Shown here in pieces: positions 8,117-63,792 of a DNA stretch of 64,000 nt. The stretch covers positions 745,648 to 809,647 of the forward strand of contig CAWJYZ010000005.1 of NCBI GenBank assembly GCA_963847225.1, written 5' to 3'. Position 1 is the first letter of the stretch, and every line of letters starts with the position of its first letter. The stretch is from an uncultured bacterium. GTDB lineage: Bacteria; Chloroflexota; Dormibacteria; Aeolococcales; Aeolococcaceae. The notes under the pieces were generated by a model. That model did no database searches. It saw only the letters and a list, made by a program, of their open reading frames with translations, and was not told the origin of the DNA. The translations under genes and the position numbers were made by a program.

Positions 8117-8220
8117 GATCGGCGATCGACCCCAACTTTCGCCTCGGGGGCCAGTCCCGCCGCCTCCGGTTGGGACCGCAGGGCCAGTCGGCGGCCACCG
8201 CGCCGCGGTACCGTGACCGC

Positions 8221-19216: not shown

Positions 19217-19230
19217 ACAGAGGTGAAGGG

Positions 19231-47929: not shown

Positions 47930-48379
47930 TCAGTAGATGCCGAGCTCCAGCTTGACCTCGTCGGAGGCCATGGTGCGCGGGTCCCAGGGCGGGTCCCAGA
48001 CGAGGTTGACGCGCACGTCCTCGACGCCGGGCAGCGGAACGCAGACGGCGTGAACCTGCGTCTCCAGGATGCTGCCCAGAGGGCAGTACGGCGAGGTGAG
48101 GGTCATGTCGACGGTGAGCAGCCCCTTCTCGTCGATGTTGCTCCCATAGACGAGACCGAGGGAGACGATGTCGATGCCGATCTCCGGGTCGTACACCTCG
48201 GAGAGGGCGTCGCGGATCATCTCCTCCGAGGCGCGCAGCGGATGGCCTTCCGGAGAGCCGGTGGCGGCCGAGGCTCCGTCACCCACGGACGTCACCGCCG
48301 GTTCGCCGCCAGCCGACGAGCCGCGCGCCGCCGGTTCGCCGCCAGCCCAGGCGGAGCTCTCGTTGCGATACTCGCTCAT
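47930..48379 (-). CDS. sufT: Fe-S cluster assembly protein SufT (DUF59/MIP18)
   Basis: DPEIGIDIVSLGLVY...TSPYCPL is the DUF59 signature. Confidence 0.75.
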   Translation of the reverse strand: MSEYRNESSAWAGGEPAARGSSAGGEPAVTSVGDGASAATGSPEGHPLRASEEMIRDALSEVYDPEIGIDIVSLGLVYGSNIDEKGLLTVDMTLTSPYCPLGSILETQVHAVCVPLPGVEDVRVNLVWDPPWDPRTMASDEVKLELGIY

Positions 48380-48870
48380 GCTGCCTCTCCTTCAGCGCCC
48401 GCAAGAGCCTGGAGCAGGGTGTTGCAGGCGAGGGTTGCGCATTTGATCCGCACCGGGTAGGCCTTCACCCCCCGGAGGGCCTCGAGGTCGCCGATCCCGT
48501 CGGCCTCACCGTCGGCCACCAGCATGTCGCGGTAGCGGAGGGCCAGCCGCTCGGCCTCCGGGCGGGGAAGCCCGGCAACCGCGTCGCAAAGCATGCTCGC
48601 CGCCGCCAGGCTGATCGAGCAGCCCTTGCCGGTGAACGCGACGTCCGCCAACCGATCACCCTCCAGGCGCCAGCTCAGCCGGATCTCATCCCCGCAGAGG
48701 GGGTTGTCCGCCTCCAGGGTCCCGCTGGCGCTGGCGACCTCCCCCCGGTGCCGGGGGTTGCGGTAGTGGTCGAGGATGATCTCTCGGAAGAGCTCGTCGT
48801 CGACTGCCGTAATCCCGACTTCCACACTCAGGATTGTACCCAGCCGGGCGGCGGGGCCAGCCCGGCCCAT
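48376..48870 (-). CDS. sufU: SufU/IscU-type Fe-S scaffold/sulfur acceptor
   Basis: LDHYRNPRH...CGDEIRL...GKGCSISLAAAS...CATLA conserved Cys set. The ATG giving MGRAGPA was verified. Confidence 0.8.
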   Translation of the reverse strand: MGRAGPAARLGTILSVEVGITAVDDELFREIILDHYRNPRHRGEVASASGTLEADNPLCGDEIRLSWRLEGDRLADVAFTGKGCSISLAAASMLCDAVAGLPRPEAERLALRYRDMLVADGEADGIGDLEALRGVKAYPVRIKCATLACNTLLQALAGAEGEAA

Positions 48871-48901
48871 GCCCCACGACCCGCTAGATTGGGTGACGAC
48901 C

Positions 48902-49996
48902 ATGACCACCCCCCTCACCGTGCTGCACGGCGACGAGACGGGCGAGGAGCTGCTCGTCGAGGCTCTCCGGGTGCTCGACGTCGGGGTCATCGGTGCCGAG
49001 CTGGCTTTCCGGCATTTTGACCTCAGCCTCGAAAGCCGCCGGGCCACCGCCAACCAGGTGGTGCACGACGCCAGCGCCGCCATGCGGGAGAGCGGCCACG
49101 GGCTCAAGGCGGCGACCATCACCCCGGAGGGACGGGACGATGTGGGCAGCCCCAACGCCATCCTCCGGGCCGAGGTCGGGGGCACCGTCATCCTCCGCAC
49201 GGGGCGCCGGATCCCCGGGGTGGTCCCCATCGCCGGGGTGAGCGCTCCGATCAGCGTGGTCCGGATGGCGGTGGGCGACGCCTACGGGGCGAGCGAATGG
49301 CGGGAGGGCAGCGGTGACGACGAACGCGCCTTCCGCCGAGAGAGCATCTCCCGCGCCGTGTGCCGCGAGGTCGCGGAGTTCGCCTTCGTGCATGCCGCGC
49401 GCAGCCGGGCCCGCGTTTTCGGGGGACCGAAGTTCACCGTCTCCCCGATCTACGAGGGAATGCTCAAAGAGGAGATGGATGCGGCCGCGGCCCGTCACCC
49501 CGATGTGGAGTACGAGCCACAGCTCATCGACGCCACCTACGCCCTGCTCCTCAACCAGGGCGGCGACGCTTTGGTGGTGCCGACCCTCAATCGCGACGGC
49601 GACTGCATGAGCGACCTGGTGCTGAGACTGTTCGGTTCGATCGCGGGGGCGGAGTCGCTCCTCATCGGTTTCTCCCGCGGATCGCTCACCCCGACGGTGG
49701 TGATGGCGGAGGCACCGCACGGGACCGCTCCACTGCTGCAGGGGAAGAATGTCGCCAACCCCATGGCCATGATCCTGGCCTGCGCCTCGCTCCTCGGGCT
49801 GATGCCGGATGACGAGCTGCGTCTCGCCTCCCGCGCCGTCTACGAGAGCGTCTTCGAGACGGTGCGCCGCGGCACGCGCACCGCGGACCTGGGTGGGAGC
49901 GCCACCACCAGCCACTTCACTGACGCCGTCATCGAGGCGGTGCGGGGCAAGCTCGAGGTGTGGCGATCCTTGGGGGCGAGCGTCCTGGGGACTTGA
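48902..49996 (+). CDS. Isocitrate/isopropylmalate dehydrogenase family protein
   Basis: N-terminal LTVLHGDETGEEL (ICDH-like) and C-terminal EAPHGTAPLLQGKNVANPMAMILA (HGSAPDIAGKxIANP motif). Confidence 0.7.
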   Translation: MTTPLTVLHGDETGEELLVEALRVLDVGVIGAELAFRHFDLSLESRRATANQVVHDASAAMRESGHGLKAATITPEGRDDVGSPNAILRAEVGGTVILRTGRRIPGVVPIAGVSAPISVVRMAVGDAYGASEWREGSGDDERAFRRESISRAVCREVAEFAFVHAARSRARVFGGPKFTVSPIYEGMLKEEMDAAAARHPDVEYEPQLIDATYALLLNQGGDALVVPTLNRDGDCMSDLVLRLFGSIAGAESLLIGFSRGSLTPTVVMAEAPHGTAPLLQGKNVANPMAMILACASLLGLMPDDELRLASRAVYESVFETVRRGTRTADLGGSATTSHFTDAVIEAVRGKLEVWRSLGASVLGT

Positions 49997-50126
49997 GCGG
50001 TCATCGCTCCGCCTGCCGTGGATTGACGAGCGCGACATCGGTGGGCTGGAAGTCCGCATCACCAGCTTGATGGAATGCTGGGCTGCCGTTGGCGAGGCTT
50101 GGTTGGAGTTCGGCCGGTGCCTGCGC

Positions 50127-53100
50127 TCAGGCGGGGACCGAGGCGGACGCCTCGACCGGGTTCAGGCCCTCGGCTCCCTCCGCTCTCGCCGGCGGGAGGA
50201 CGCGATCCGTCCGGTCGACGTACGGCTGGGCCCCGAGCTCCGTGAAGGTCCGGCGGGCCTGGGCGATGAGCTCCTCGGCTTGGCGAAGCCGCCCCGCGCG
50301 GGCCAGCACTTCGCCAAGCTCCATGCGTGCCACGGCGGACCAGAAAGGTCGGCTCAGGCTGTCAAAGGCCTCGGCGGCCTGGCGCAGGTGGGTCTCGGCC
50401 TCCTCGGCGTCGCCACGCCTTTCGGCAAGACGGCCGGTCCAGCGCAGCAGGTGGGCGTCGATGGACGGCTGCGCGCCGGCCCGAATGTTGCGGCGCATGA
50501 GGTCGATCAACTCCTGGACCTTGCTCTCCTGGTCGAGGGTGAAGGCCGCTTCAACGGCCTCGACGAGCGCCTGCCGCAGGGAGACGAGGGACGACTGTTC
50601 GATGCTGGCGCGCAGGGTGTCCTCGGCGAGAGCCAGGGCCTGGCCCGCCTCCCCCTCCGCGTTGAGCACCGCCGCTTGAGCCGCATCGAAGTACCAGCGG
50701 TCCTGCCCGGTGGTCGCCTTCTGCAGGGTGGAGCCGGAGGAGTTGAGGAGGCCATGAGCGGCGAGCACGTCGCCCTGTCGCAGATGCAGCCACAGCGCGG
50801 TGAGCGAGGTGGCGGCGACGAAGGTGGACTGACTGAGCTCCGCCACGTCGTCTTCCGAGTACCCCGCGAAGATGGATCTGCAGGCGTCCCACCGGCCGAG
50901 CTCGAAGAGTGGAGCCATGCAGTTCAGCTTGTTGCCCCACATCACGGGCCGATCGCCGATGCGCTCGGCAAGCTCGGCACCCTGCTCGTAGACGGCGAGC
51001 GCGTCCTCCATACGGTCGGCCTCCTCCAGGCGTGTGGCCAGGTACGAGCAGGCGCGTGCCGCTTGTTCAGGCAGGTCGTGGTCGAGGGCGACGTTGAGGG
51101 CACCCTGAAAGAGGAGCTCGGCCTCCATGAGGCGGCCCTGGGTCTGCAGGATGCCGCCCTTCGTGTCGAGGCTCCGCGAGAGGAGGTCCCAGGAACCCAG
51201 CTCCTCGGCGATCTCCAGTGCTCGCTCGATGTGCTCCAGTGCGACGGTGAACTCACCACGGAAAAACGCCATGCTGGCAACGCTGCTCTCGGCGTTGCCC
51301 AGGAAGCCCCGGTGCTCCTCCCGGGTGGCGCCCTGCAGGCCCTGGAGTGCCTTCTCGCCGCGGGGGACGGCGGCGTCGCTGTCCCCCTCCCGGAACTCCA
51401 GGCGGGCGAGCTCGGTGAGGGCCGCGGCTCCCTCCATCGGCAGACCAGCCGTGGCGAAGGATTCGGCCGCCTGGCGCAGATGGGACCTCGCCTCGACACC
51501 ACGACCCTTGCGCGCCGCTGCCCTGCCGGCTTTGGCGTGCAATTCTGCGCGGAGGGCGGCGTCGTCAATCAGCTCGAGAGCCTGTTCGTAGTAGCGCTGC
51601 GCGGAGGCCGGAGCGCTCAGGGAGTTGGCGTGTTCGCCCGCTCTGATCAGCCCTCGGGTGGCCCGGTCGCGGATCTCCGGCGCGTCCTCCGCGTCAGGGT
51701 CCGCTCGGTAGGCGGCGACCAGATGCGAAGCCACCACCTCGGTGATGTCCTCTCCCTCCTGCCAGGCGCTCTGCAGGTGAGCGGCCGCTGCGAGGTGGCG
51801 CAACTTGCACTCGCGTCTCGCCAGGGTGGCGTAGGCCACGCTCCGCACCAGGTCCTGAACGAACACGTACTGGCCGCGCTCCGGCGAGCGAGGGTCGGAC
51901 TGGATGGCGAGCAGGTCCTTGCTGACCAAGCCGGTCAAGAGCCGCGCCAGCTCGCTCTCCTCGCTCCCGTTCACCGCGGAGAGAGCCGCCGCGGTGAAAG
52001 ACTTGCCAAGCACGGACGCGTCCTGGAGCACCTGCCGCTCGGGAAGGCTCAGATGGTCGAGCCGGGCCGCCACCAGGGCATGCAGGCTCTCCGGCACCTC
52101 CAGAGCCTGCAGCGACCCCTCGAGACGGTACTTCCCCTGGGACTCCACGAGAAGGCCACGGTCGAGAAGCATGCGCACCGTCTCCACGGCGTAGAGGGGG
52201 ATGCCGGCTGCCCGCTCCCGGATGCGGGCGGCGACGTCGGCGGGAAGCCCCGGCACGAGGCCGTCGAGCAGCTCGGTCATGGCCTCGGAGGAGAGCGGCT
52301 CGAGGTAGAGGGAGGCCAGTCCGCGCTTTCCCGTGCCCCACCCCGGGCGCCGCTCGCTCAGCTCAGGGCGGGCCAGGGTGATGACGAGGATGGGGGTGCT
52401 TCGCGACCAGTCAAGGAGGTACTCGATGAAGTCGAGGAGCCCGCCGTCGGCCCACTGGAGATCCTCGAAGACCATGACGGTCAGGCTGTGCGCGGCGACG
52501 CGCTCGAAGAAGACGCGCCAAGCCGCGTACAGGTCTCGTGGGTCCCCGAGGCTCACCTCCTCGAGCCCGACGAGGTGAGCCAGCCGAGGCTCCACCCAGC
52601 GCCGCTCCTCCTCCTCGGCGACAAAGTCGAGGATGGTTGCGTGGAGCTTGTCGCGCGCCGATTCGGTCGCCTCGTTCTCAGCGATCCCCGCACGCATCCG
52701 CACCATCTCCGCCAGGGCGGAGTACGCAACTCCCTCTCCATAGGCGAGGCAGCGGCCGCGATGCCAGTAGATGGTCTCGGTCAGGCCGTCGACGTATTTG
52801 AAGAACTCCCAGGCGAGGCGGGACTTGCCCACCCCGGCCATGCCCACGATGGAGAGGAGCCGGGCCCGGGCCTCCTCGCCGGTGCCGTGCAGGAACTCCT
52901 TGAGAAGGCGGAGCTCCCGGTCGCGGCCCACGAAGGGGGGCTCCAGGCCGGAGGGGCGGAGCGCCCCGCCGCGGGCCGCGACCACCCGGGCCGCTTGCCA
53001 CAGCCGGATGGGCTCCGGCTTGCCCTTCAGCTGATGCTTGCCGGTGTCCTCGTAGACGATGGCGGCCTCGGTCGCCTGGCGGGTGGCGTCGCCGACGTAG

Positions 53101-53768
53101 ACCATCCCCGGCTCCGCAGCCGCCTGTACCCGCGATGCCGTGTTGACCAGATCTCCGGCGACCATGCCCTCGCCGCTCGCGCCGACGTTCACCGCCACCT
53201 CGCCGGTCATGACCCCGGCACGGGCCGTCAGCCCGGGGATCCCGAGCTCCTGCCCGAAGACCGCCACGGAGTCGACGAGCTCGAGGGCGGCGCGGACGGC
53301 TCGCTCCGCTCCGTCCTCGAGGGCCCTCGGGGCTCCCCATACCGCCATCACGGCGTCGCCGATGAACTTCTCGACGGTTCCGCCGTAGCGTCCGATGACG
53401 GTGCGAGCCCTCTCGAAGTACTGGCTGAGCAGGTCGCGCACCTCCTCGGCATCGCGCCGGTCGGAGAGTGCGGTGAAGCCGACGAGATCGGCGAACAGCA
53501 CCGTGACGTGGCGCCGCTCTGGAGCAGGCTGCTCGGAGCGCACCCCGCCCGGCGTGGGCCCGGCGCGAACCCCAGGGGGGCTCATCGCCGCGGGCGCAAC
53601 GATCGCCGCAGGGGCCTCCCCGAGCGCCACCCCGCATTCACCGCAGAACCGATCCTCCGCGCCGTTGGCAGCGCCACAGGACGGGCAGAGGCGCTCCAGC
53701 GGAGCGCCGCAGCTGCCGCAGAACCGCCGGCCCGGTCGGTTCTCCGCGCCGCAGGCCTGGCAGTTCAT
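50127..53768 (-). CDS. Zinc-ribbon / class III adenylate cyclase / STAND (AAA_16) ATPase / TPR multidomain protein
   Basis: MNCQACGAENRPGRRFCGSCGAPL..CPSCGAANG double zinc ribbon. The cyclase has metal Asp motifs (VLFADLVGFT, EKFIGDAVMAV), a substrate Lys and Asp (AGDLVNTASR), and the N...R transition-state pair. Walker A IVGMAGVGKSRLAWE. The C-terminal ~600 aa are TPR-like helical repeats. The ATG was verified. Confidence 0.8.
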   Translation of the reverse strand: MNCQACGAENRPGRRFCGSCGAPLERLCPSCGAANGAEDRFCGECGVALGEAPAAIVAPAAMSPPGVRAGPTPGGVRSEQPAPERRHVTVLFADLVGFTALSDRRDAEEVRDLLSQYFERARTVIGRYGGTVEKFIGDAVMAVWGAPRALEDGAERAVRAALELVDSVAVFGQELGIPGLTARAGVMTGEVAVNVGASGEGMVAGDLVNTASRVQAAAEPGMVYVGDATRQATEAAIVYEDTGKHQLKGKPEPIRLWQAARVVAARGGALRPSGLEPPFVGRDRELRLLKEFLHGTGEEARARLLSIVGMAGVGKSRLAWEFFKYVDGLTETIYWHRGRCLAYGEGVAYSALAEMVRMRAGIAENEATESARDKLHATILDFVAEEEERRWVEPRLAHLVGLEEVSLGDPRDLYAAWRVFFERVAAHSLTVMVFEDLQWADGGLLDFIEYLLDWSRSTPILVITLARPELSERRPGWGTGKRGLASLYLEPLSSEAMTELLDGLVPGLPADVAARIRERAAGIPLYAVETVRMLLDRGLLVESQGKYRLEGSLQALEVPESLHALVAARLDHLSLPERQVLQDASVLGKSFTAAALSAVNGSEESELARLLTGLVSKDLLAIQSDPRSPERGQYVFVQDLVRSVAYATLARRECKLRHLAAAAHLQSAWQEGEDITEVVASHLVAAYRADPDAEDAPEIRDRATRGLIRAGEHANSLSAPASAQRYYEQALELIDDAALRAELHAKAGRAAARKGRGVEARSHLRQAAESFATAGLPMEGAAALTELARLEFREGDSDAAVPRGEKALQGLQGATREEHRGFLGNAESSVASMAFFRGEFTVALEHIERALEIAEELGSWDLLSRSLDTKGGILQTQGRLMEAELLFQGALNVALDHDLPEQAARACSYLATRLEEADRMEDALAVYEQGAELAERIGDRPVMWGNKLNCMAPLFELGRWDACRSIFAGYSEDDVAELSQSTFVAATSLTALWLHLRQGDVLAAHGLLNSSGSTLQKATTGQDRWYFDAAQAAVLNAEGEAGQALALAEDTLRASIEQSSLVSLRQALVEAVEAAFTLDQESKVQELIDLMRRNIRAGAQPSIDAHLLRWTGRLAERRGDAEEAETHLRQAAEAFDSLSRPFWSAVARMELGEVLARAGRLRQAEELIAQARRTFTELGAQPYVDRTDRVLPPARAEGAEGLNPVEASASVPA

Positions 53769-53823
53769 CGCGGGGAGTGTACGACGCCCCTCTGAGAGGG
53801 AAGGGTGCCGTTGCCCACCCGCA

Positions 53824-56800
53824 TCAGGACTGCGCGCTGACCGCAGCCCTGCCTCGGGCTCGAACCGTCGTCCGCAGGATCTGCGGGCGATCGATGGCAC
53901 CTGCTCCCCGGAGCCGCTCCATGGCGCGCAGGGCACGGGCCGCGGACACCGTGTTGCCCTTCTTCTCGAAGAGGGGGATGGCCTCGGCCAGCGCAGCCTC
54001 GGCCTCTCCAGGCTTCCCGGCTGCCTCCAGCACCTCCGCGAGCCCGACGAGGGCGTCACCCTGGACGTCGGGTTGATCGGTGGTGCGAATCACCCGGACG
54101 GCCTCATGGGCCATCTCCTCGGCCTCTCCGGGTCGACCCTGCACGGCCAGTAGCTTGGCCTGGATGCAGCGCCACTGGTACTGGGCGCCAACGTCGTGTG
54201 GCGCCGCCAGATCGTGGCAAACGCCAGCAAACGTCGAGGCCTCCTCGTCGCGGCCCTGCGCGTGCAGGACCTCGGCGAGCAGCCCGGCGACAGTGGGCGT
54301 GTACCCCTTGTCGCCCATCGCAGTCAGCGCCTCGTAGTCGGCGCGAAGCTCGGACTCAGCGCGATCCAGGTCGCCGGCCAGCATCTCCGCCGGTCCCGAG
54401 TGCAGCGAGGTGATCGCGGCACTCAGGCTGAAGCCGAGCTCAGTCAGCATCTTTCGGCTGCGCTGGTAGAGATCCCGGGCCAGCTCGGCGCTTCCGCACA
54501 TGGCTTGCAGGTGACTCATCGCCGAGAAGGTCATCGCCTCAGTTCTGCGATCCCCGGCCCCTCGACCCAGGATCTCTTGGCAGCGGTCGAGGGCGTCCGA
54601 GACCGGGGTGGCGCTGTAGACGACGCAGGAAGCGAGCGCGGAGAGCATGCGGATCTCGAACACGCGGCTGGAACCGAGCTCGGCTTCGTGGATTGCCTGG
54701 GTTACGGCTTCCTCGGCGCGACTGAACTGTCCTTCATAAAAGTGCACGTAAGCCATGAGCCGCCAGGCGCGAGCGAGACCCTCGTGCGAGCCGGTCCGCT
54801 CCAGCTCCCTGATGGCCTGCTCGCACTCCGCGGCGACGGCCGCCGCCGGCTCGTTCTCCGGCGCGGACAGGAACCGCCACATCCGCCGCACCACCGACGC
54901 GACGATGGCAAAGGCGGGCCTGTCTTGCGCCCGGGCGCGCTCCTCCGTGGTGATGAGGGCTTCTTCGGCCGCCTGAAACTGCCCCATCTCGCCCAGGGCC
55001 TCGCCGATATGCAGGAGCCACCGTGGCGCCTCTCTTCCATGGGGGTCGAGGGTCGCGGCGCGGTGCAGCAGGGTGGCCGTCGCCGGCACGTCACCGCTCG
55101 ATCGGGCCCGCTCGCCAGCCGCCGCCAAATGCGTCGCCCCGCGCCGGCCCACGGTCTTGCCCCGCTCGTCGACGGGACCGAGCTGCGCCAGCGTCAGGCA
55201 GGCCTGCTCCAGGTGATAGCCGCAGACCTCGTCCAGCTCTCCCGAATGCTCGGAGGGATTGGCCTCGAGCCAATCGGCGAACCGCTCGTGCAGGTCAACC
55301 CGAGTCCGCTTCAGGAGGCCCTGGTAGGCAGCGTCGCGGATCAGCGCGTGGTCGAAGCGGAACGCCCGCTGCCCCGGGGATCCGGCCTCCACGGGGGTCA
55401 CCAGCTCTCGTCTGACAAGGCCATCCAGGCTCGCCCCCGCCTGGGGACGGAGCTCGTCGGAGCAGAGAGCCTCCACCGCCGGCTGCAGGAACAGCTGACC
55501 GATGACCGCCCCGCGCTCCAGGACGCTGCGGTCCGTGGCGCCCAGCCGGTCGAGGCGGGCAGCCAGCAGGGCTGTGATGCTGGGAGGCACGGCCAGCGAC
55601 GAGAGATCGGCAGCCGCCACCCAGCCGGTCCCCTCGCGGCGGATGAGCCCGTCATCGATCATCATGGAGAGCATCTGCTCGACGAAGAGCGGATTCCCTG
55701 CCGCTGCCTCGATGATCCGGCGGCGAGGCGCCTCGGCGAGCGTGCCGTCGCCGAGAAGATTGCACACCACCTCCCCGCTCTCCACCTCGCTCAAGGGGCT
55801 GAGGATCAGCACCTGAGCGCCATCTCTGCTCTCGCCCCATCCCGGCTGCTGATCCAACAGCTCGGGGCGCGCAGAGCAGAGGAGCAGGAGCGCTGGTGCG
55901 TCCGAGCCGGGCTCAGCAAGGTATCGAAGGAGATCCAGGAAGGTGAGCTCTGCCCAGTGGATGTCCTCGATCCTCGCCACCACCGGGCCGGTGTGGCTGA
56001 GCGCTGCGATGAGCTGCCGGGTGGCCCAGAACGTCTCTCGAACCGGGAAGGTGGCCTCCCCCAGCCCGAGCACCGCCGCCAGCCTCTCGGTGACGTCCGG
56101 TGCCTCGCCCCCGACGAGCTGATCGAGCTTTGTCCGAGCTGCCTCCGCGTCGTCCGCATCGGTGATCCCGGCGGCATCCCGGACCATCTCGGCGAGCGGC
56201 CCAAAGCTGCCCTCGCCGTAGGAGAGGCACCTCCCGTGCAGCACTCGCGCCTTGTCCGCAGCCCGTTCGAGGAACTCCTGGATCAGCCGGGATTTGCCGG
56301 TGCCGGCGGGGGCGAGGACGGTCACCATCTGGGGGGAGCCGAGGCTCGACACCCGGGCCAGGGCCTCGACCATCGCGTTCAGCTCCGCGCTGCGTCCGAC
56401 CAGTGGGGTGTCGGCGCGGCGGGCCACCCCTTCGCGCCGGCTCACCCCCCGGAGGCGATAGGCGGGGATGCGCTCGGACTTTCCCTTCAGCTCCAGCGGC
56501 TCCACCGGCTCAACGTCGACGGCGTCGCGGACCAGGCGGTAGGTCGGCTCTCCGATCAGGGTTTCCAGGGGCGGGGCCGCCTGCTCCAGCCGGGCGGCGA
56601 CGTTGACGGCGTCGCCGGTCACCAGCCGCTGTCCTGGTGCTGGCTGGCCCGCGATGACCTCGCCGGTGTTCACGCCCGTGCGGTTCTGGAGAGCCACACC
56701 CCAGCGGGCCGCGAGATGGTCGTTGAGCTTCTTCAGCTCCTCCTGCATCTCGTACGCAGCACGGACCGCCCGCACGGCGTCGTCCTCGTGGACGCGGTTG

Positions 56801-57087
56801 AGCCCGAAGACGGCCATGATGGCGTCGCCGATGTACTTCTCAATGGTGCCGCCGTGACGCTCGAGGACGGTCTTCATCGCCTCGAAGTACGCATGCAGGA
56901 CCTCGCGGAGCGCCTCGCTGTCGAGACGCTCCCCCAGCTCGGTCGAGCCCTTGAGGTCGCTGAAAACGATGGTGACGGTCTTGCGGACCTCCTGCGGCGG
57001 CGGGGCGACAACGAGAGGGGTTCCGCAGAAACCACAGAGCCGGAACCGGTCAGGGTTCTCCTCGCCGCAACTGGGGCAGATTTGCAC
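53824..57087 (-). CDS. Zinc-ribbon / class III adenylate cyclase / STAND ATPase / TPR multidomain protein (paralog)
   Basis: ICPSCGEENPDRFRLCGFCG, then IVFSDLKGST, EKYIGDAIMAV, VTGDAVNVAARLE. Walker A LAPAGTGKSRLIQEF. TPR-like tail. GTG start. Confidence 0.8.
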   Translation of the reverse strand: MQICPSCGEENPDRFRLCGFCGTPLVVAPPPQEVRKTVTIVFSDLKGSTELGERLDSEALREVLHAYFEAMKTVLERHGGTIEKYIGDAIMAVFGLNRVHEDDAVRAVRAAYEMQEELKKLNDHLAARWGVALQNRTGVNTGEVIAGQPAPGQRLVTGDAVNVAARLEQAAPPLETLIGEPTYRLVRDAVDVEPVEPLELKGKSERIPAYRLRGVSRREGVARRADTPLVGRSAELNAMVEALARVSSLGSPQMVTVLAPAGTGKSRLIQEFLERAADKARVLHGRCLSYGEGSFGPLAEMVRDAAGITDADDAEAARTKLDQLVGGEAPDVTERLAAVLGLGEATFPVRETFWATRQLIAALSHTGPVVARIEDIHWAELTFLDLLRYLAEPGSDAPALLLLCSARPELLDQQPGWGESRDGAQVLILSPLSEVESGEVVCNLLGDGTLAEAPRRRIIEAAAGNPLFVEQMLSMMIDDGLIRREGTGWVAAADLSSLAVPPSITALLAARLDRLGATDRSVLERGAVIGQLFLQPAVEALCSDELRPQAGASLDGLVRRELVTPVEAGSPGQRAFRFDHALIRDAAYQGLLKRTRVDLHERFADWLEANPSEHSGELDEVCGYHLEQACLTLAQLGPVDERGKTVGRRGATHLAAAGERARSSGDVPATATLLHRAATLDPHGREAPRWLLHIGEALGEMGQFQAAEEALITTEERARAQDRPAFAIVASVVRRMWRFLSAPENEPAAAVAAECEQAIRELERTGSHEGLARAWRLMAYVHFYEGQFSRAEEAVTQAIHEAELGSSRVFEIRMLSALASCVVYSATPVSDALDRCQEILGRGAGDRRTEAMTFSAMSHLQAMCGSAELARDLYQRSRKMLTELGFSLSAAITSLHSGPAEMLAGDLDRAESELRADYEALTAMGDKGYTPTVAGLLAEVLHAQGRDEEASTFAGVCHDLAAPHDVGAQYQWRCIQAKLLAVQGRPGEAEEMAHEAVRVIRTTDQPDVQGDALVGLAEVLEAAGKPGEAEAALAEAIPLFEKKGNTVSAARALRAMERLRGAGAIDRPQILRTTVRARGRAAVSAQS

Positions 57088-57201
57088 GGGAGGTCATTCC
57101 CCCCGACGCCGCGCGATTACAGTGGAAGATCCCGCAGCAGAGCCCCGCTGCCGCGCCCTTGGCGGGGCGGGGCCTGCCGCGAACCGTGGGTCAGGGTGCG
57201 T

Positions 57202-58617
57202 TTACGTGGACCCCCAGAAGTCGCCGGGCGCACCGAAGAACTCGATGAGGACGTCGCCGCCCTTCTTGGTCCGCGAGACGGTGCACGGAGCCGGGACGGT
57301 CGACGAGCAGTCGGGAAGGAGGCCGACGTACAGGGGCGTCAACGTACCCGGGATTGTGGTTGTATCCGTATCCTGGGAGGCCATTCCACCAGCCCTGACC
57401 GGGAAGTCTTCGGTGCTGGCGTAACAGATCTGGTAGAAGGGCGCTCCGTTGTTCGCCGAGGCGTCCACCTCGGACTTGGGGACGTCGATGATGATGTCGT
57501 AGGTAGCGGCTGAGTCCGTTCCGTCGTACTTGCTCGAAGCGGTCCAGAGGTCGACTCCGATCGACCCCGTCACCGTGCCGTAGCCAGTGCAGCTATATGC
57601 GAAGCCGCCCAGCCCAAGGCTCAAGATGTCGCCCCCGGTGGCGTTGCTGATGTCGACGCTGACCCCCGTCGTCTTGTTGCCGGCGGCAATGTCCCCCGCA
57701 CACGAGCTGTTGCAGTCCGCGGAGGTTGTGGTGACTAGGAAGGTTGTCGAGTTGGTTGTGTGGAATCCAGCGGCACTGGCCGTGAGCGCGTAGTAGCCCG
57801 TCTGGTTGACATAAATCGGGGAGAAGGAGGCCACGCCCAGCGACGTGCCACCCGTGCCGTCGCCTGTAGTAGCTGAGGTATCGCCGATGAGCTTGCTGTT
57901 GGTGGGCCCATAGATCTCGCTCAGAGCGATCGTCACGCCGCCAAGGAGGTTGCCCTCGCCATCCTTGGCCTCGACCTCCACCGGCGCACCGGTGGGATCG
58001 AACGGTTGACTCGTGATGTCGTTGGAGTAGGTGCCCCCGCCTGTTGGGAAGGAGGTCTTCGCCGGCTCGGCGATGGAGACGAAAGCGAGCGTGCATTCGC
58101 CGCTGACTTGGACGCTGAGACCGCTCGCGGAATCGATGACGAAGTCGTTGCCCGGGTTGCCGTTGAAGTTGTTGGCTTGCTTGGCCTGCAACATCCAATC
58201 GCTGGCCGCTCCGGCGCAGGAGACTGTGCCAGTGAACGATGCAGTGATAGCGCCGCCCGGCGGGACGTCGAGGGATCGGAGCTCGAGGACGGTCCCGGAC
58301 GCGATATTAGCTGTTGCCGATGCGGCTGGGTAGCCGTCGGTCACCGACGCCGAGCTCAGCACCCAGTTGCTTGGCGCGGTGAGGTCGGCGGAGCCTAGCG
58401 ACTGCTGGGTGTCCTCGTTTGTCAGTGTGAAAGTGAAGTTGACGGTGGCCCCCGCACCGACCGGGCTCGGGTTGTACGAGAGACTCCCGAGCGCGCACTT
58501 GGCGCTGCTGCAACCACCGCTCGCGCCAGCCAGGTTCGCCGTGGCCGGCAACCCCATGGCCGCCGCCACAAGCAGCATCACCCCCCACCGAATTTTGCCA
58601 ACCCCAAATCGGCCCAT
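57202..58617 (-). CDS. Secreted Ser/Thr/Gly-rich protein (signal peptide), lower GC than surroundings
   Basis: AGGAGG SD 6 nt upstream of the verified ATG. Signal peptide MGRFGVGKIRWGVMLLVAAAMGLPATANLAGA. The mature protein is S/T/G/N-rich with several Cys pairs. GC3 is visibly lower than in neighbouring genes. Confidence 0.7.
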   Translation of the reverse strand: MGRFGVGKIRWGVMLLVAAAMGLPATANLAGASGGCSSAKCALGSLSYNPSPVGAGATVNFTFTLTNEDTQQSLGSADLTAPSNWVLSSASVTDGYPAASATANIASGTVLELRSLDVPPGGAITASFTGTVSCAGAASDWMLQAKQANNFNGNPGNDFVIDSASGLSVQVSGECTLAFVSIAEPAKTSFPTGGGTYSNDITSQPFDPTGAPVEVEAKDGEGNLLGGVTIALSEIYGPTNSKLIGDTSATTGDGTGGTSLGVASFSPIYVNQTGYYALTASAAGFHTTNSTTFLVTTTSADCNSSCAGDIAAGNKTTGVSVDISNATGGDILSLGLGGFAYSCTGYGTVTGSIGVDLWTASSKYDGTDSAATYDIIIDVPKSEVDASANNGAPFYQICYASTEDFPVRAGGMASQDTDTTTIPGTLTPLYVGLLPDCSSTVPAPCTVSRTKKGGDVLIEFFGAPGDFWGST

Positions 58618-58847
58618 GGTTACCCTCCTCCTTCCGGACAAGCTTCTTGATATCAGCCAGCCGGGCTTCCCTTCCATGGGCACAGCGTGGACAGGCAGGC
58701 ACACAATAGCGTACCCGGGGGGAGGCGTCCACCTGGCGTATTCGAACGCCTTGGCGGGAAGCCCTTGGAGGATGCGACCGGGGCGGTGTACCCTTTGCCG
58801 GCCGCCTGCCTCGGACAGCGGCCAGAGCCGATGGGGAGAGGAGCGCC

Positions 58848-60632
58848 GTGACGGTCCAGGCGGTCGAACCACAATCGTCGCCCCCGCACGGGCTCGGCAA
58901 CCGGCTCCTCCGCTACCGCAGGCGGCGGGCGGAGAGGTCGGCGCCGCGGGCCAGCTACGGAGCCCTCTTCCGCAACCGCGACTACCGCCTGCTGTTCAGC
59001 GGTCTGACCATCTCCATGACCGGGTCGTGGGCCTACAACGTGGCCCTCGTCGTCTACGTCTTCGACGTCACCCACTCCGCCGCCTGGGTGGCCGCGGCGT
59101 CGGTGAGCCGCTTCCTCACCTCCCTGGTGGCGAGCCCGTTCGGCGGCCTCCTCGCCGACCGCGTGGAGAGGATCCGGCTGATGGTGTCCCTGGACGTCGT
59201 GGCTCTTGTCGTCCAGGGTCTGCTCGCCGTGGTGGCGGCGCTGCACGGCTCGGTGGTGCTCGGCCTCGTGCTGGTGGCCCTGACCTCGGTGGTGGGCCGT
59301 GCCTACGACCCCGCGGCGCGGGCGGCAACCCCCGCCGTGGTCGGCGAGGAGCTGCTCGCCGCTGCCAACAGCATGCAGTCGGCGGTCGAAAACCTCACCC
59401 TCCTTCTCGGGCCCGCCCTCGGCGCCGTGCTCATCCTCCTCGGCCCACCCGCCGTGGTGTTCGCGGTGAACGCGGCGACCTTCGGCGTCTCGGCGCTCCT
59501 CGTGAGCCGCATGCTCACCCGCAACCGCCCCGGGGACATCACCAAGGGAGGCGCCGTCGGGCCGCTGCGCCAGATGGCCGAGGGCATCCAGGCCTTCGCC
59601 AGCTCCGGAACCGTGGTCCTCCTGGCCAGCTTCAGCATCCTGGCCAGCTTCATCTACGGCACCGACACGGTGCTGCTGGTCGTTGTCAGCAAGGACCTCC
59701 TGGGCACCGGCAGCACCGGTTACGGCTACCTGCTCGGAGCCCTCGGAGCCGGCGGCATCGTCATGGCCCTGTTCATGAACCGGATCGCGGCGATGCGTCG
59801 CCTGGGGGCGATCATCGTCGCCGGCATGGCCCTGTACTGCCTGCCCACGGCCCTGCTGCCCCTCGTGCACTCTCCGGTCGTGGCCTCCCTCCTGGAGGTG
59901 GGCCGCGGCGCCGGGACCATCATCGTCGACGTCCTCGCCATCACCGCGATGCAGCGCTTTGTGCCCTCCGACGTGGTGGCCCGCGTCTTCGGCGTCTTCT
60001 TCGCCCTCGTCCTCGCCGCCATCTCCCTCGGCGCCCTCCTCATGCCCATCCTCCTCGGCGCTTTCGGCCTCGACACGACCCTGCTGGTGATGGGCCTGGC
60101 CATCCCCGTGCTCTCGGTGCTGGCCTATCCATGGATCGCGCGCCTCGACGCCCGGGCTCGTGCGGTGCTGGTGAGCATCGAGCCGCGCCTCAGCATCCTG
60201 CGCGGCTTCGACATCTTCGCCGGCATCCCCCGCGGCGCTCTCGAGGCCGTGGCACGCGGTGCTGTCGAGGAGAAGGTGGAGCCCGGCATCGTGATGATCC
60301 CCGAGGGCGCCGAGGCCGACGACTTCTTTGTCCTCACTGCCGGGGAGGCGGCCGTCACTGCCCGTGCTGCTGGGGAGGAGCGCCGCCTCGCCACCCTCAC
60401 GGCGCCGGACTACTTCGGGGAGATCGGGCTCCTGGAGCGCCGGCCGCGCACCGCCACGGTGACCGCGACCTCTCCCTGCACCATCCTGCGAATCAAAGGC
60501 GGCGACTTCCTGGCGGCGGTCACCGCGGTGCCGCTCACCCCCGGCTCTCTGGGGCGCGCCCAGGCGCGGCTCGAGCGCACCGAGCCGGCGGCCAAGCTCA
60601 CCCTGGCCGGCACCGCGGCGCCAGCCGGCTGA
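58848..60632 (+). CDS. MFS transporter fused to C-terminal cyclic-nucleotide-binding (CAP-type) domain
   Basis: ~12 TM MFS core (YRLLFSGLTISMTGSWAYNVAL...). The C-terminus has FAGIPRGALEAVA...GIVMIPEGAEADDFFVLTAGEA...DYFGEIGLLERRPRTATVTAT, a cNMP-binding signature. GTG start with a gagagga SD. Confidence 0.75.
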   Translation: MTVQAVEPQSSPPHGLGNRLLRYRRRRAERSAPRASYGALFRNRDYRLLFSGLTISMTGSWAYNVALVVYVFDVTHSAAWVAAASVSRFLTSLVASPFGGLLADRVERIRLMVSLDVVALVVQGLLAVVAALHGSVVLGLVLVALTSVVGRAYDPAARAATPAVVGEELLAAANSMQSAVENLTLLLGPALGAVLILLGPPAVVFAVNAATFGVSALLVSRMLTRNRPGDITKGGAVGPLRQMAEGIQAFASSGTVVLLASFSILASFIYGTDTVLLVVVSKDLLGTGSTGYGYLLGALGAGGIVMALFMNRIAAMRRLGAIIVAGMALYCLPTALLPLVHSPVVASLLEVGRGAGTIIVDVLAITAMQRFVPSDVVARVFGVFFALVLAAISLGALLMPILLGAFGLDTTLLVMGLAIPVLSVLAYPWIARLDARARAVLVSIEPRLSILRGFDIFAGIPRGALEAVARGAVEEKVEPGIVMIPEGAEADDFFVLTAGEAAVTARAAGEERRLATLTAPDYFGEIGLLERRPRTATVTATSPCTILRIKGGDFLAAVTAVPLTPGSLGRAQARLERTEPAAKLTLAGTAAPAG

Positions 60633-60660
60633 CAGGCTGCCAGCCGGGCCGCCGGCGAGC

Positions 60661-61010
60661 TCAGCCGGTGCCGGAGGCCGGGACCGGCTCTCCGCCCTCT
60701 CCCGGCGGAGCTGCCTCCGAGGCCTCTCCCCCCTCCGCCGAGGGTGCCCGGGGGAGCGCCTCCATCAGCAGGCGGACGGGTCGGCGGAGATCCGGGCGCA
60801 CCTGGAAGAAGGTCGCGTCGTCATCACCCGTGGCCACCAGCAGCTGGGCGGTGCGCAGCCGCTCCAGCTGGTGCTCCACCTCGAACTCCGGCCGGTGCAT
60901 CGTCTCCGCCAGCTCGCGCGCGGTGCGCGCCCGCTGCAGCAGCTCTCGGACCAGGGCCAGCCGCCCCGGGTCGCCCAGGGCACGGAAGAGATCGGCCGCC
61001 CCCGGCAGGT
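60661..61010 (-). CDS. Small ArsR/SmtB-family transcriptional regulator (start unresolved)
   Basis: LFRALGDPGRLALVRELLQRARTARELAETMHRPEFEVEHQLERLRTAQLLV is an ArsR-type wHTH. There is no in-frame ATG/GTG upstream of the HTH; a candidate ATG lies in the adjacent frame, suggesting another indel. Confidence 0.5.
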
Positions 61011-61044
61011 GCTCCTCGCCGGCCGCCGTCCGCAGCCGGCCGCG

Positions 61045-61924
61045 AGTTCATATGGAGCATCGGACGCAGAGACAGCCCCTGTCCGGTTGCGTAGCTGGTG
61101 CGCAGCAGCGCCTCGCCGACCGTGGCTCCCCCGCTGCGCCGTGCCACCACCAAGTAGAAGGCGGCCACCACCAGCGCCGCCGCCACCGCGTCCACCCAGC
61201 CCCAGTTGAACCCGAGACCCGCCAGCCGGCCGATGGCGAGGAGGCCGGTGATGATGCTGCCGACGATGCCCATGTCGATGGCCGCGGCGAAGGCGATTCG
61301 TGCCCAGCGGGGGACGCGCACCAGCCCGGCACCGTGCCCCGCCGGCGCCTTGCGCGCGGCCAGGTAGACGCCGACCCCCACCACCACGAGCAGGCCGCCC
61401 TGCACCGCCAGCCTCTCGATGCTGGTGAGGAAGTGCTCGACGGGAACCCCGACCGCCGCTCCGAGGGCCACGAAGGCCGCGACCCAGAGGGCGGTGGCGG
61501 GCACGAGGCCCTCGAGGTAGGTGGCCCGTGGCAGGCGCAGGGCCCCCGCCACCAGGGTGGTGTAGATGCGAAGCCCGGGGATGAGCCGGCTGATGGCCAC
61601 CCCGGTCCAGCCGGAGGTGCGGACCCGGGCGGTGACCTTGGTCAGGGTCTCCTCGCGATGGAGCCGCTGAGCCACGGCGTGCAGACCCCGATCGCCCACC
61701 GCCCGCGCCCAGGTGTATCCGACCATCGCCCCCGCCACGCAGGCGAAGACGGCCAGCGGACCGAAGACGTAGGGGTCGAGGCCTCCAGCGGCGATGAGCA
61801 GCCCGGCCGCAAGCAGGACGAGCTCCCCGGGGGTGGGCAGCGGCACGCCGGCCTCCTCGGCGAAGAGGAGGCTGCAGAGAAGAGCGATGGCGACCGCCCC
61901 GTGCAGCCCCTCGAGAAAGTTCAT
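61045..61924 (-). CDS. DedA/TVP38 family membrane protein (3' end unresolved)
   Basis: VPLPTPGELVLLAAG...GWTGVAISRLIPGLRIYTTLVAG DedA core. The ORF runs on without a stop into the ArsR gene region as low-complexity R/G/A sequence. The true end is probably near 61050-61170. Confidence 0.55.
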
Positions 61925-62185
61925 GGACGCGGCTCCACATGCTCAGCCGGGCAGGGCCGTGAAGGTTCCAGCCTACCGGACGGTTCGCCATACCGCCTCC
62001 TCCCGGGACGATCGGCTGACGGCGATCCCCCTCCGGCGGGTGGCGGATGGGCTCCCCGGCAACCTCAGGGCAGCGAGGAAAGGAGCTTTCCTACCTACGC
62101 GTATGGGCTCCGCCACCACATGGTCGCCCCCTGCCGGAACCCCGCGGCCCAACCGCCCCGGGGCCCCCCGGCTCCAGCGACCTCG

Positions 62186-63469
62186 TCAGACCCGGAAGAC
62201 CCGGCGCACCTCGGCGATGCCCTCACCCAAACGGTCGACCTCAGCATGGGTCGTGTACAGGTAGACCGACGCCCGGGTGGTGGCGGCGACTCCCAACCGG
62301 CGCATCAATGGCTGACAACAATGGTGCCCAGCCCGGACCGCGATGCCGAGACGGTCGAGAACCGTACCCGTGTCGTGGGGATGGACGTCGGCGACGTTGA
62401 AGCTCACGGCCCCGCCGTGGATGGAGAGGTCGCGGGGGCCGTAGACCGTGGCCCCCGATTCGTCGAGGACGTCGAGCATGTGCCCCACCAGGGACTGCTC
62501 GTGGGCGTGGATGCGTTCCCGGCCCACCCCGTCGAGGTAGTCGCAGGCCGCCGCCATCCCCACCGCGGCGGCGACGTCGGGGGTGCCCGCCTCGAACTTG
62601 TGGGGGACGGCGTTCCAGGTCGAGCGCTCCAGCTCGACCCGGGCGATCATCTCCCCGCCACCCAGGAAGGGCGGCATCTTGTCGAGGAGCTCGGGGCGGG
62701 CCCAGAGCACCCCGCCCCCCATCGGGCCGCACATCTTGTGGCTCGAGAAGGCGTAGAAGTCGACGCCCAGAGAGGCGATGGAGACCGGCATCTGCGGCAC
62801 CGCCTGGGCCCCGTCGACGCACACCAGGACACCCCGGCGGTGGGCCGCCTCGGTGACGGCGGCGATGTCGTTGACGGTGCCCAGCACGTTGGACTGGTGG
62901 GTGAGGCTGACGAGCCGGGTGGGCGGGGAGAGCAGCTCCTCGAGGCGAGAGAGGTCGAGCTGGCCAGCGTTGGTGACGCCGAGAAAGGCGAGCTGCAGCC
63001 CGGCGCGCTGGGCGGCGAGCTGCCAGGGCACGAGGTTGGAGTGGTGCTCCATCTCAGTGAGCACCACCCGGTCCCCGGCACGCAGCGTCTCGCGCGCGTA
63101 GGAGCTCGCCACCAGGTTGAGCGCCTCGGTGGTGTTGCGCACGAAGACGACGCCCTCGGGGTCGGCGTCGACGAACGCCGCCACCCGGCGCCGGGAGCGC
63201 TCGAAGGCCTCGGTGGCCTCGGCGCCGAGACGGTGCACGCTGCGGTGCACATTGGAGTTGATGGTCCGGTAGTAATGGTCGATAGCGTCCAGAACTGGGA
63301 GCGGCTTCTGGGAGGTCGCCGCCGAGTCCAGGTAGGCGAGGGGGTGGCCGTTCACCTCCTGATGGAGGATGGGGAAGTCGGCGCGGACCCGTTCGACGTC
63401 GAGGTGCCCGTCGTCGATACCCGTCGCCGCGGCGGTCGAGGGGGCGCGGGTCGTCGACATCACCCTCAC
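62186..63469 (-). CDS. sufS: Cysteine desulfurase SufS
   Basis: DFPILHQEVNGHPLAYLDSAATSQKP, the PLP-Lys region SHKMCGPMGGGVLW, and the active-site Cys loop RAGHHCCQP. Confidence 0.9.
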   Translation of the reverse strand: MRVMSTTRAPSTAAATGIDDGHLDVERVRADFPILHQEVNGHPLAYLDSAATSQKPLPVLDAIDHYYRTINSNVHRSVHRLGAEATEAFERSRRRVAAFVDADPEGVVFVRNTTEALNLVASSYARETLRAGDRVVLTEMEHHSNLVPWQLAAQRAGLQLAFLGVTNAGQLDLSRLEELLSPPTRLVSLTHQSNVLGTVNDIAAVTEAAHRRGVLVCVDGAQAVPQMPVSIASLGVDFYAFSSHKMCGPMGGGVLWARPELLDKMPPFLGGGEMIARVELERSTWNAVPHKFEAGTPDVAAAVGMAAACDYLDGVGRERIHAHEQSLVGHMLDVLDESGATVYGPRDLSIHGGAVSFNVADVHPHDTGTVLDRLGIAVRAGHHCCQPLMRRLGVAATTRASVYLYTTHAEVDRLGEGIAEVRRVFRV

Positions 63470-63792
63470 TCGCTCAGCGCCACCCGGATCACCCCGTCGC
63501 TCACCTCCACCGCGTGGACGCGGACGGGCTCCACAGCGGGCAGGGTGATGGCGTCGCCCGTGCGCAGGTCAAATGCGGATCCATGCAGCGGGCACTCGAT
63601 GGCACAGCGCTCGACGTCGAGGTCACCTTCGGAGAGCGACGCCTCCTGGTGGGTGCAGGTGTCGTCGATGCAGTGCAGCTCACCCTCGACGTTGAAGATG
63701 GCGATCGGTGTCTCATCGATCTCGAGGCGTGCGGCGTGTCCCGGGGGGATGTCGGTAACCCGGGCGACGGTGACCCATTGGCTCACGATCAC
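63466..63792 (-). CDS. Rieske [2Fe-2S] domain protein (suf-associated)
   Basis: CTHQEASLSEG ... CPLHGSAFDL is the CxH...CxxH Rieske ligand pattern; 108 aa. Confidence 0.8.
   Translation of the reverse strand: MIVSQWVTVARVTDIPPGHAARLEIDETPIAIFNVEGELHCIDDTCTHQEASLSEGDLDVERCAIECPLHGSAFDLRTGDAITLPAVEPVRVHAVEVSDGVIRVALSE

Follow-up and report, generated by a model that had tools for sequence, protein, structure and literature searches.

The 64,000-nucleotide stretch of DNA analysed here (the window) carries genes of the SUF pathway for iron-sulfur (Fe-S) cluster assembly in two places, with sufU and sufT in one, sufS, a Rieske ferredoxin gene and the end of sufD in the other, and a 13,360-bp block of unrelated genes in between (48826-62185). 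We consider it quite probable that these are two separately started suf units, that the islet of genes between them is a long-standing, plastic feature of the lineage, and that an operator shared by the two units co-regulates them. Two observations carry this conclusion. The sufS|sufU junction is an old breakpoint at which the gap content turns over from relative to relative, and the start of sufU bears a promoter-operator cassette that is shared with the start of rrf2, at the head of the upstream suf cluster.

Suf genes, gene order and host of the window

Since the region is about 70% G+C, open reading frames (ORFs) were filtered by third-position GC (GC3) and then named with Pfam and NCBIfam. 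The names confirm what an earlier note on this DNA had described, i.e. suf genes that all lie on the minus strand and, between sufU and sufS, a block of unrelated genes in both orientations, of which we count six or seven. The suf genes are the following:

47930-48379, minus strand: sufT, a DUF59 Fe-S assembly protein (Pfam FeS_assembly_P, 65.7 bits).
48376-48825, minus strand: sufU, the sulfur-transfer partner of SufS, 149 aa from GTG 48825 (TIGR01994, 139 bits; cutoff 92.5).
62186-63469, minus strand: sufS, cysteine desulfurase, the last gene of the upstream suf unit (TIGR01979, 544.2 bits; cutoff 475.1).
63466-63792, minus strand: Rieske [2Fe-2S] ferredoxin gene of the suf cluster (Pfam Rieske, 79.9 bits).
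63789-64000, minus strand: 3′ end of sufD, which runs off the window (Pfam SUFBD_core).

The sufT ATG overlaps the sufU stop by 4 nt, and the Rieske stop overlaps the sufS start (63466-63469). The window SufS is 80-84% identical to the Dormibacterota SufS of relatives, and SufT is 80-89% identical to the SufT of loci L082, L085, L086, L089 and L093; the N-terminal ~30-45 residues of SufT are without conservation. sufU had previously been started at ATG 48870. Its start is most likely GTG 48825 instead, since it is there that conservation begins in an alignment of 13 loci (alignment A1).

To assign a taxon, SufS was queried against one genome per species. The best matches are metagenome-assembled genomes of Candidatus Dormibacterota, at 68-81% identity (L002, which is among them, is labelled only ‘bacterium’), and the first actinobacterial match reaches only 56%. 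Judged by SufS, the host is a Candidatus Dormibacterota soil bacterium and not an actinobacterium. The actinobacterial operon, against which the earlier note had measured the locus, is therefore the wrong yardstick.

The same applies to the remark that sufC is missing beside sufS. The absence itself stands, as the whole 64 kb contains no SufC-type Walker A motif, but it simply reflects the gene order of the phylum. A tblastn search of Dormibacterota loci with the SufC, SufB, SufD and Rrf2 of a close relative gives the order rrf2-sufC-sufB-sufD-Rieske-sufS in ten of them, namely: L001-L005, L007, L009, L010, L014 and L082. In the actinobacterial locus L011, which also has a Rieske gene in the cluster, sufC is placed between Rieske and sufS. 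The sufC of the source genome is thus expected upstream of sufB, beyond position 64000. SufB and SufC genes are found in the relatives, and of the scaffold the window itself holds only the C-terminus of SufD. The Logan contig L081, identical to the right end of the window, encodes an identical Rieske protein and extends sufD to a full-length SufD of 444 aa, ending before sufB. By its gene content, the machinery is a standard SufS/SufU-type SUF system with a phylum-specific gene order. A literature search on Dormibacterota and SufS returned no paper on suf genes in Dormibacterota.

The sufS|sufU junction across relatives

Beside sufS, the clade of the window has a conserved core set of genes, consisting of a Cyc2-type gene for a nucleotide cyclase with a STAND NTPase part, a gene for a secreted protein (Unk, 35-45% identity) and, on the opposite strand, a gene for a transporter of the major facilitator superfamily (MFS) fused to a domain that binds cyclic nucleotide monophosphates (MFS-cNMP). 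We also refer to it as the cyclic AMP (cAMP) set. The gap was followed through the loci below, with SufS identity measured to the window SufS. The outgroups are L011 (Actinomycetota), L012 (Dehalococcoidia) and L013/L008 (Gemmatimonadota/Longimicrobia).

Other phyla (L008, L011, L012, L013): SufS 56-60%; gap 13-120 nt; no content.
L014, the most distant Dormibacterota locus: SufS 53%; gap ~10-30 nt; no content.
L007 and L010: SufS 60%; gap ~0.36-0.38 kb; no gene.
L004: SufS 70%; gap 0.9 kb; SnoaL.
L006: SufS 70%; gap 1.4 kb; MFS_1.
L005: SufS 68%; gap 1.8 kb; MFS_1.
L009: SufS 59%; gap 1.8 kb; BNR-like.
L003: SufS 73%; gap 3.3 kb; SRPBCC and MFS_1.
L082: SufS 84%; gap 4.2 kb; Iso_dh and a VapBC-like pair, with the cAMP set wholly absent.
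L089: SufS 90% over the 175 C-terminal aa available; gap 10.7 kb; core set.
L093: SufS 81%; gap 11.1 kb; core set in its plainest form.
Window: gap 13.4 kb; core set, Cyc1 and a DedA gene with a winged helix-turn-helix (DedA-wHTH).
L086: SufS 91% over the 113 C-terminal aa available; gap 13.5 kb; core set.
L092: SufS 80%; gap 15.3 kb; core set, rearranged.
L001: SufS 80%; gap >10 kb; Iso_dh and cyclase, i.e. the core in part.

sufS and sufU are contiguous in the outgroups and in L014, and the split is therefore derived within the phylum. Every Dormibacterota locus that reaches sufU, with the exception of L014, has both a gap and a separate sufU promoter.

The isocitrate/isopropylmalate-family dehydrogenase gene of the islet (Iso_dh) occurs in two states. 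One state, found in L003, L004, L005, L007, L009 and L010, is a position upstream of the suf cluster and in its orientation, ahead of an Aminotran_5 paralogue and rrf2. The other, which the window shares with L001, L082, L085, L086, L089, L092 and L093, is a place within the gap with the orientation reversed, where the gene in most cases faces sufU directly; L001 and L002 lack it at the upstream position. From these two states it follows that one gene was relocated and inverted once, in the ancestor of the window's clade. The idea of a rearrangement, one of the two offered by the earlier note, thus holds for the split and for Iso_dh; the other, an insertion into a tight operon, does not hold as a recent event (see below).

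The core genes occupy the same site in L086, L089, L092 and L093, are partial in L001 and L085, and are absent in L082. Their order in L093, L086 and L089 is sufS, X, MFS-cNMP (opposite), Unk, cyclase, Y, Iso_dh (opposite), sufU, where X and Y are placeholders; L092 is rearranged. The layout in L093 is sufS, then MFS_1-cNMP and MFS_3-cNMP, then Unk and the cyclase, then Iso_dh, and finally sufU-sufT. Around the core the content varies, and includes a 119-aa cNMP-binding protein (L086, L089, L092), VapBC-like pairs (L082, L092, L001), AAA_14-DUF4143 or ATPase_2-DUF234 ATPases (L001, L089, L092), and a glycosyltransferase with Kelch-like proteins (L086, L092). Decay is seen as well: the MFS-cNMP gene of L089 is split by a frameshift (18490-20110), and the cyclase-STAND gene of L092 is broken, with a 136-aa ORF between the pieces (5076-8281). 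By tblastn, the MFS_1 genes in the gaps of L003, L005 and L006 have no homology to the window MFS-cNMP, nor does a 420-aa protein of L082 have any to the window secreted protein.

A promoter-operator cassette shared by sufU and rrf2

The start of sufU in the window carries the following element:

48811-48838, minus strand: promoter-operator cassette at the sufU start, with the -10 hexamer TACAAT (48838-48833), 7 nt and then GTG (48825).

Upstream of sufU in the 13 Dormibacterota loci of alignment A1, nothing can be aligned except a TA(C/G)(A/G)AT hexamer. It stands 6-7 nt before the ATG or GTG where protein conservation begins, there is no Shine-Dalgarno sequence, and TA..AT and (A/G)TG are invariant in the alignment. 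This geometry suggests a leaderless or near-leaderless mRNA. In the window, the promoter is overlapped by a 25-bp inverted repeat of 10-5-10 form, AATCCTGAGT-GTGGA-AGTCGGGATT (48835-48811), which is centred on the start codon and has arms complementary at 8 of 10 positions. The repeat resembles ATASYYGACTRWWWYAGTCRRSTAT and matches the IscR type-1 consensus at 17 of 25 positions.

The element at the start of rrf2 in the relatives is nearly alike: TA(C/T)AAT, 7 nt, (A/G)TG, NN(A/G) and GTCGG(A/G)(A/T)TT, with inverted-repeat arms complementary at 6-9 of 10 positions. The pattern TANNNT-N7-RTG-NNN-GTCGG is found once in the window, at sufU; among 94 loci it is found 18 times, in 15 of them, each time at the start of rrf2 or sufU. 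We also built a position weight matrix from five rrf2 sites alone. It gives the window sufU site 30.2 bits, with every other position in the 64 kb below 12 bits, and its best non-training match is the sufU start in L082, L085, L086, L006, L004, L093, L003 and L092. The conserved codons GTC GG(A/G) (A/T)TT are unusual for a genome of 70% G+C, and the constraint is therefore on the nucleotides and not on the peptide.

The Rrf2 protein of the relatives scores 126 bits against TIGR00738 (cutoff 73.3) and 99 bits against the IscR equivalog (cutoff 207.5). Its C104, C114 and C120 are invariant in 7 sequences, and it has an N-terminal extension of 12-27 residues that starts MTVGIS; SufU starts M/V-x-V-G-I/F.

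Further sites of this kind were noted. Between its sufC and sufB, L007 carries a site (6827-6851, AATACCTAGTAAACCAGTCGGAATT) that matches the rrf2-type operator with 23 bits, and L014 has a weak operator-like site (12.9 bits) at 8274, upstream of sufD. On the other side of the 76-bp spacer between sufU and Iso_dh (48826-48901), across which Iso_dh points away from sufU, there is a TAGATT hexamer 11 nt before the Iso_dh ATG, and TAnnnT hexamers stand 9-10 nt upstream of Iso_dh in L082, L085 and L089. With hexamers on both sides, the spacer seems to contain a divergent pair of promoters whose leaders are very short or absent. In L007, a 12-bp GC-rich hairpin with a T tail lies between sufS and the sufU promoter.

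We propose that sufU-sufT would form a transcription unit of its own in all examined Dormibacterota that reach sufU except L014. The sufS-sufU gap would then tolerate gain, loss and shuffling of genes because no read-through from sufS to sufU is needed. It would behave as a plastic islet, being empty or holding one or two unrelated genes in deeper relatives and, in the window's clade, combining an inverted Iso_dh by sufU with the conserved cAMP set by sufS and a variable middle. Depending on the genome, that middle would be taken up by toxin-antitoxin genes, AAA ATPases, a glycosyltransferase, a second cyclase, a small cNMP-binding protein or DedA-wHTH. From the sites and the protein we infer where transcription starts, that the three-cysteine Rrf2 would bind both the rrf2 and the sufU sites, and that it would repress both units at adequate Fe-S supply. 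Such shared control would keep sufS and sufU co-regulated across 13 kb. More speculatively, sufU may have acquired its cassette, along with the first five codons (M-x-V-G-I/F), as a copy of the one at rrf2; if so, copying of this kind would show concretely how an operon can split and yet stay co-regulated.

Several points weigh against this proposal. That sufU starts without a leader and that nothing reads through into it from sufS are themselves predictions from sequence. The left half of the operator is weak at the sufU sites of L086, L089, L092 and L004 (3-6 of 10 positions complementary), and in the deeper loci L007, L009 and L010 the sufU promoter is present and the operator absent. The rrf2 site of the source genome falls beyond the window, and the conserved GTCGGRWTT could act at the level of RNA rather than DNA. 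A generic scan for sigma-70 promoters and intrinsic terminators over 47.5-64 kb gave no relevant result at sufU or downstream of sufS; it is blind to the sufU promoter, which is without a recognisable -35. The 261-nt spacer between sufS and DedA folds no better than its shuffles (z = -0.03). Finally, the junction between Cyc1 and Cyc2 is the only one in the block that independent contigs do not back.

Genes of the islet

The block contains the following genes:

48902-49996, plus strand: Iso_dh, a divergent isocitrate/isopropylmalate-family dehydrogenase (Pfam Iso_dh, 148.5 bits).
50127-53768, minus strand: Cyc1, with a double zinc ribbon, class III nucleotide cyclase, AAA_16 STAND NTPase and TPR (Pfam).
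53824-57087, minus strand: Cyc2, with a zinc ribbon, class III adenylate-cyclase-like domain, AAA_16 and TPR (Pfam).
57202-58617, minus strand: Unk, a secreted 471-aa protein with a signal peptide (identical protein P0241; a family of only 48 clusters).
58848-60632, plus strand: MFS-cNMP, an MFS_3 (EntS/DHA3-like) transporter with a C-terminal cNMP-binding domain (Pfam MFS_1/MFS_3; cNMP_binding, 60.9 bits).
60661-61924, minus strand: DedA/VTT membrane domain with an ArsR/SmtB-like wHTH (Pfam/NCBIfam).

Iso_dh scores under every NCBIfam equivalog cutoff (best 108 bits), and its orthologues are 62-92% identical across the relatives. For Iso_dh, as for Cyc2 and SufS, a look-up of the exact protein sequence found no record. 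A cupin ORF of the window (44509-44826, plus strand) shares 39% identity with the cupin encoded immediately after Iso_dh in L089 and L092; its place in the window is 4 kb to the left of sufT and not beside Iso_dh.

The conserved cyclase of the islet is Cyc2, with orthologues of 64-69% identity at the same position in L001, L086, L089, L092 and L093. Cyc1, which starts at ATG 53768, has an orthologue only in L085 (76% identity), where it also adjoins Iso_dh. The cyclase domains score 76-79 bits against Pfam Guanylate_cyc. That of Cyc2 aligns to the solved adenylate cyclases CyaB 3r5g (94 bits) and 2w01 (88 bits); the motifs FSD, K-x-x-GD and N-x-A-x-R-L-E of 3r5g are kept, and a residue check on Cyc2 finds both metal-binding Asp residues as well as the substrate Lys and the Asn/Arg of the transition state. 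Cyc2 probably has adenylate cyclase activity, under the control of its STAND NTPase and TPR sensor part. That cAMP is the product of the cyclases and the ligand of the cNMP-binding (CNB) domain is likewise a prediction from these domains.

The secreted protein is predicted to be all-beta, with tandem immunoglobulin (Ig)-like sandwiches (AlphaFold2, pLDDT 88.8). Foldseek returns integrin legs, Gram-positive pilins and adhesins, all low in TM-score and no more than generic matches to Ig-like stalks. Its gene had been noticed for a lower GC content, correctly so: GC is 0.642 and GC3 0.82, compared with 0.70-0.72 and 0.90-0.93 in the orthologues of five relatives. The protein evolves fast, its nearest homologues being 67% and then 50% identical, compared with 65-80% for the neighbouring genes and their own orthologues. 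Allele replacement, or relaxed or diversifying selection, may lie behind these features.

The MFS-cNMP transporter is of the 12-helix type and is conserved at 67-82% in hundreds of Dormibacterota clusters; orthologues with 70-81% identity lie in the gaps of L086, L089, L092 and L093. All its equivalog scores are under cutoff, the best named partial match being the enterobactin exporter EntS (83 bits). Gating of transport by cAMP is the simplest reading, as the fusion has a C-terminal cNMP-binding domain.

The earlier note had listed a small ArsR regulator and DedA as separate genes, for a total of seven in the block. They are probably one gene of 420 aa. In contig L090 (ERR11594399), the DedA/VTT domain (residues 9-159) and the wHTH (HTH_metalloreg, residues 309-376, 33 bits, below cutoff) are encoded in one ORF of 420 aa, which lacks the C found at 61049 in the window, and in the window the third-position GC signal changes frame exactly at this extra C. 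The extra base reflects either a mistake of the assembly or a genuine frameshift in this unusual, membrane-tethered regulator fusion. Within the gap, DedA-wHTH was encountered only in the window and in L090, the contig identical to it. The 119-aa cNMP-binding gene of the relatives has left no remnant at 60.6-61.1 kb, and matches only the CNB domain of the MFS fusion. The genes of the islet are most likely an independent module for cAMP signalling and transport, outside Fe-S assembly.

Origin and role of the islet

One rival explanation is that a foreign island of 13 kb was recently inserted into a tight, essential sufS-sufU-sufT operon. The adjacency of sufS and sufU in the outgroups and L014, the low GC and GC3 of the secreted-protein gene, and the toxin-antitoxin and AAA ATPase genes in the gaps of relatives, which are typical of variable regions, could all be read in this way. 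However, the block is not absent elsewhere, since relatives with 80-84% SufS identity have the same core genes in the same order, and, L014 apart, all the Dormibacterota loci that reach sufU have the gap and a sufU promoter of their own. The composition of the block is native: in 4-kb segments, the tetranucleotide correlation to the whole window is 0.968-0.980 (mean over the window 0.979, sd 0.006), the lowest value in the window falls at dnaA/dnaN, outside the block, and GC3 of the block genes is 0.85-0.93, with the secreted-protein gene as the exception. No tRNA gene was found near the block (the sole one of the window is at 5526-5600), no integrase or transposase Pfam domain was detected, a repeat search over 47.5-63.6 kb gave no flanking repeats, only chance-level short matches and the similarity of the paralogous cyclases, and no Rfam family matched at E ≤ 0.1 anywhere in 40-64 kb. 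A shared core in relatives together with homogeneous composition is the very outcome that the earlier note had named as refuting an insertion, and the recent-island reading, which we regard as highly improbable, is largely refuted. Nor is the split likely to be only apparent, through an assembly that joined two loci, an explanation to which we attach next to no weight. The assembly is of metagenome type, it differs by the single base at 61049 from another assembly of the same organism, and the paralogues Cyc1 and Cyc2 are 71% identical over a stretch of 123 nt. This identity is too low to mislead an assembler, though, and the left junction, sufT-sufU-Iso_dh-Cyc1, recurs in L085, from a different sample. 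Moreover, L090 matches 58781-62214 base for base save for the 1-nt indel, a segment that begins 67 nt before the start of MFS-cNMP, spans DedA and takes in the final 29 nt of sufS, and the order Cyc2-Unk-MFS-cNMP recurs in four relatives. The block is thus not a misassembly.

Two other explanations concern what the islet does. The cAMP set may be tied to iron or Fe-S homeostasis and kept between sufS and sufU for that reason; it could, for example, comprise a cAMP-gated EntS-like exporter of a siderophore or thiol that is coordinated with SUF. If true, this would be an undescribed link of cyclic-nucleotide signalling to Fe-S biogenesis. In its favour, the cyclase, the secreted protein and MFS-cNMP stay beside sufS even though the secreted protein has diverged to 35-45% identity, the transporter has its below-cutoff match to EntS, and the window adds the metalloregulator-like ArsR/SmtB wHTH. 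We nevertheless find it unlikely, as the set is absent from the gap in L082 (SufS 84%) and in all deeper relatives, is decaying in L089 (frameshifted MFS) and L092 (broken cyclase), and includes a transporter whose orthologue in L091 adjoins a Crp-like regulator with no suf gene within 10 kb; in addition, no islet gene of the window is preceded by an operator copy of at least 12 bits. The remaining candidate is an anti-phage defence region, in which a cyclase and a cNMP-binding membrane protein would form a Pycsar-like pair alongside toxin-antitoxin and STAND genes. PADLOC PycC models do match both cyclase domains (E 1e-18 to 4e-21), and PycTIR/effector models the cNMP-binding domain of the MFS fusion (E 7e-10), in a setting where the gaps of relatives carry VapBC-like pairs and AAA_14-DUF4143 and ATPase_2-DUF234 genes. 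These matches are confined to generic cyclase and CNB domains, however, and the cyclase domain scores higher against CyaB/2w01 than against the PycC models (up to 73.5 bits), which is suggestive only. The cyclases are STAND/TPR proteins of 1,087-1,213 aa and not compact PycC, and the supposed effector is a widely conserved MFS transporter gene that is divergently transcribed, with another gene between it and the cyclase. A role in defence is accordingly very doubtful.

Surroundings of the suf genes

dnaN and dnaA lie at 31554-34340 (minus strand; DnaA-type Walker A at ~33836) and a ParA-like ATPase gene at 42936-44075; the position of dnaA/dnaN puts the suf cluster ~14 kb from the likely replication origin. 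The parA/parB-DUF2203-sufT-sufU neighbourhood is also present in L086 and L089. The SufB of L082 (17040-19466) and of L001 (5914-8328) is ~808 aa long and contains an intein with a LAGLIDADG homing-endonuclease domain, which is absent from L002-L010. In L014 (3293-8366) the cluster is broken by ~5 kb between sufB and sufD, and sufS-sufU-sufT are contiguous.

Significance and comparison with known systems

Two suf units that are probably started separately and share a predicted operator amount to an ordinary lineage-specific operon split with a regulatory detail. It is commonplace for clusters to split and to gather accessory genes at the break; what is new is the copy of a promoter-operator heading the detached unit, which is a modest and testable addition. 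The apparent damage to an essential actinobacterial operon is how a different, uncultivated phylum normally orders these genes, and no insertion or misassembly flag is due. The sufU-sufT unit, with its copy of the rrf2-suf promoter-operator, offers a testable example of operon fission, and the shared operator would explain how sufS and its obligate partner sufU can lie 0.9-15 kb apart and still be coordinated. For Dormibacterota, the cassette also yields a first candidate for a regulon motif and a first hint that starts may be leaderless, and the islet defines a conserved gene set for cAMP signalling and transport in the phylum.

In domain architecture, the islet genes would be comparable to proteins of mycobacteria, where there are multidomain cyclase-ATPase-TPR proteins, e.g. 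Rv0386, Rv1358 and Rv2488c, as well as MFS and other membrane proteins with cNMP-binding domains, e.g. Rv3239c and Rv3728. Shared with these are the class III cyclase, the AAA_16 STAND and TPR parts and the transporter-cNMP fusion; the window differs in its N-terminal zinc ribbon, in the lack of a LuxR-type helix-turn-helix and in the linked secreted Ig-like protein. With Pycsar, the islet has in common a nucleotide cyclase near a membrane protein with a cNMP-binding domain, at the domain level of the PADLOC matches, whereas the architecture, size, arrangement and conservation pattern of its genes are different.

For the suf genes, the closest reference is the operon Rv1460-Rv1466 of Mycobacterium tuberculosis, i.e. 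sufR-sufB-sufD-sufC-sufS-sufU-sufT or ‘sufRBDCSUT’ (PMC9045647). The SufS/SufU/SufT-type machinery and the SufBD-type scaffold are the same. In Dormibacterota, a different phylum, the regulator is of the Rrf2 family, sufC precedes sufB and not sufS, and in the window sufU-sufT is a separate unit 13.4 kb away.

The predicted control of the two units resembles the autoregulation of IscR. Holo-IscR represses its own operon through type-1 sites, which overlap the promoter of the isc operon in E. coli and P. aeruginosa (PMC3899308). In both cases there is an Rrf2-family regulator with three cysteines and a 25-bp 10-5-10 repeat with the core YYGAC..GTCRR, placed over -10/+1 of the regulator's own operon, and the left half of the window site, AATCCTGAGT, is identical to that of the P. 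aeruginosa iscR site A (PMC3899308). The Dormibacterota protein differs in reaching the Rrf2 superfamily cutoff but not the IscR equivalog cutoff. The cluster under predicted control is suf rather than isc, the site has its centre at the start codon of a gene that appears to be leaderless, and a second predicted site heads the detached part of the same pathway.

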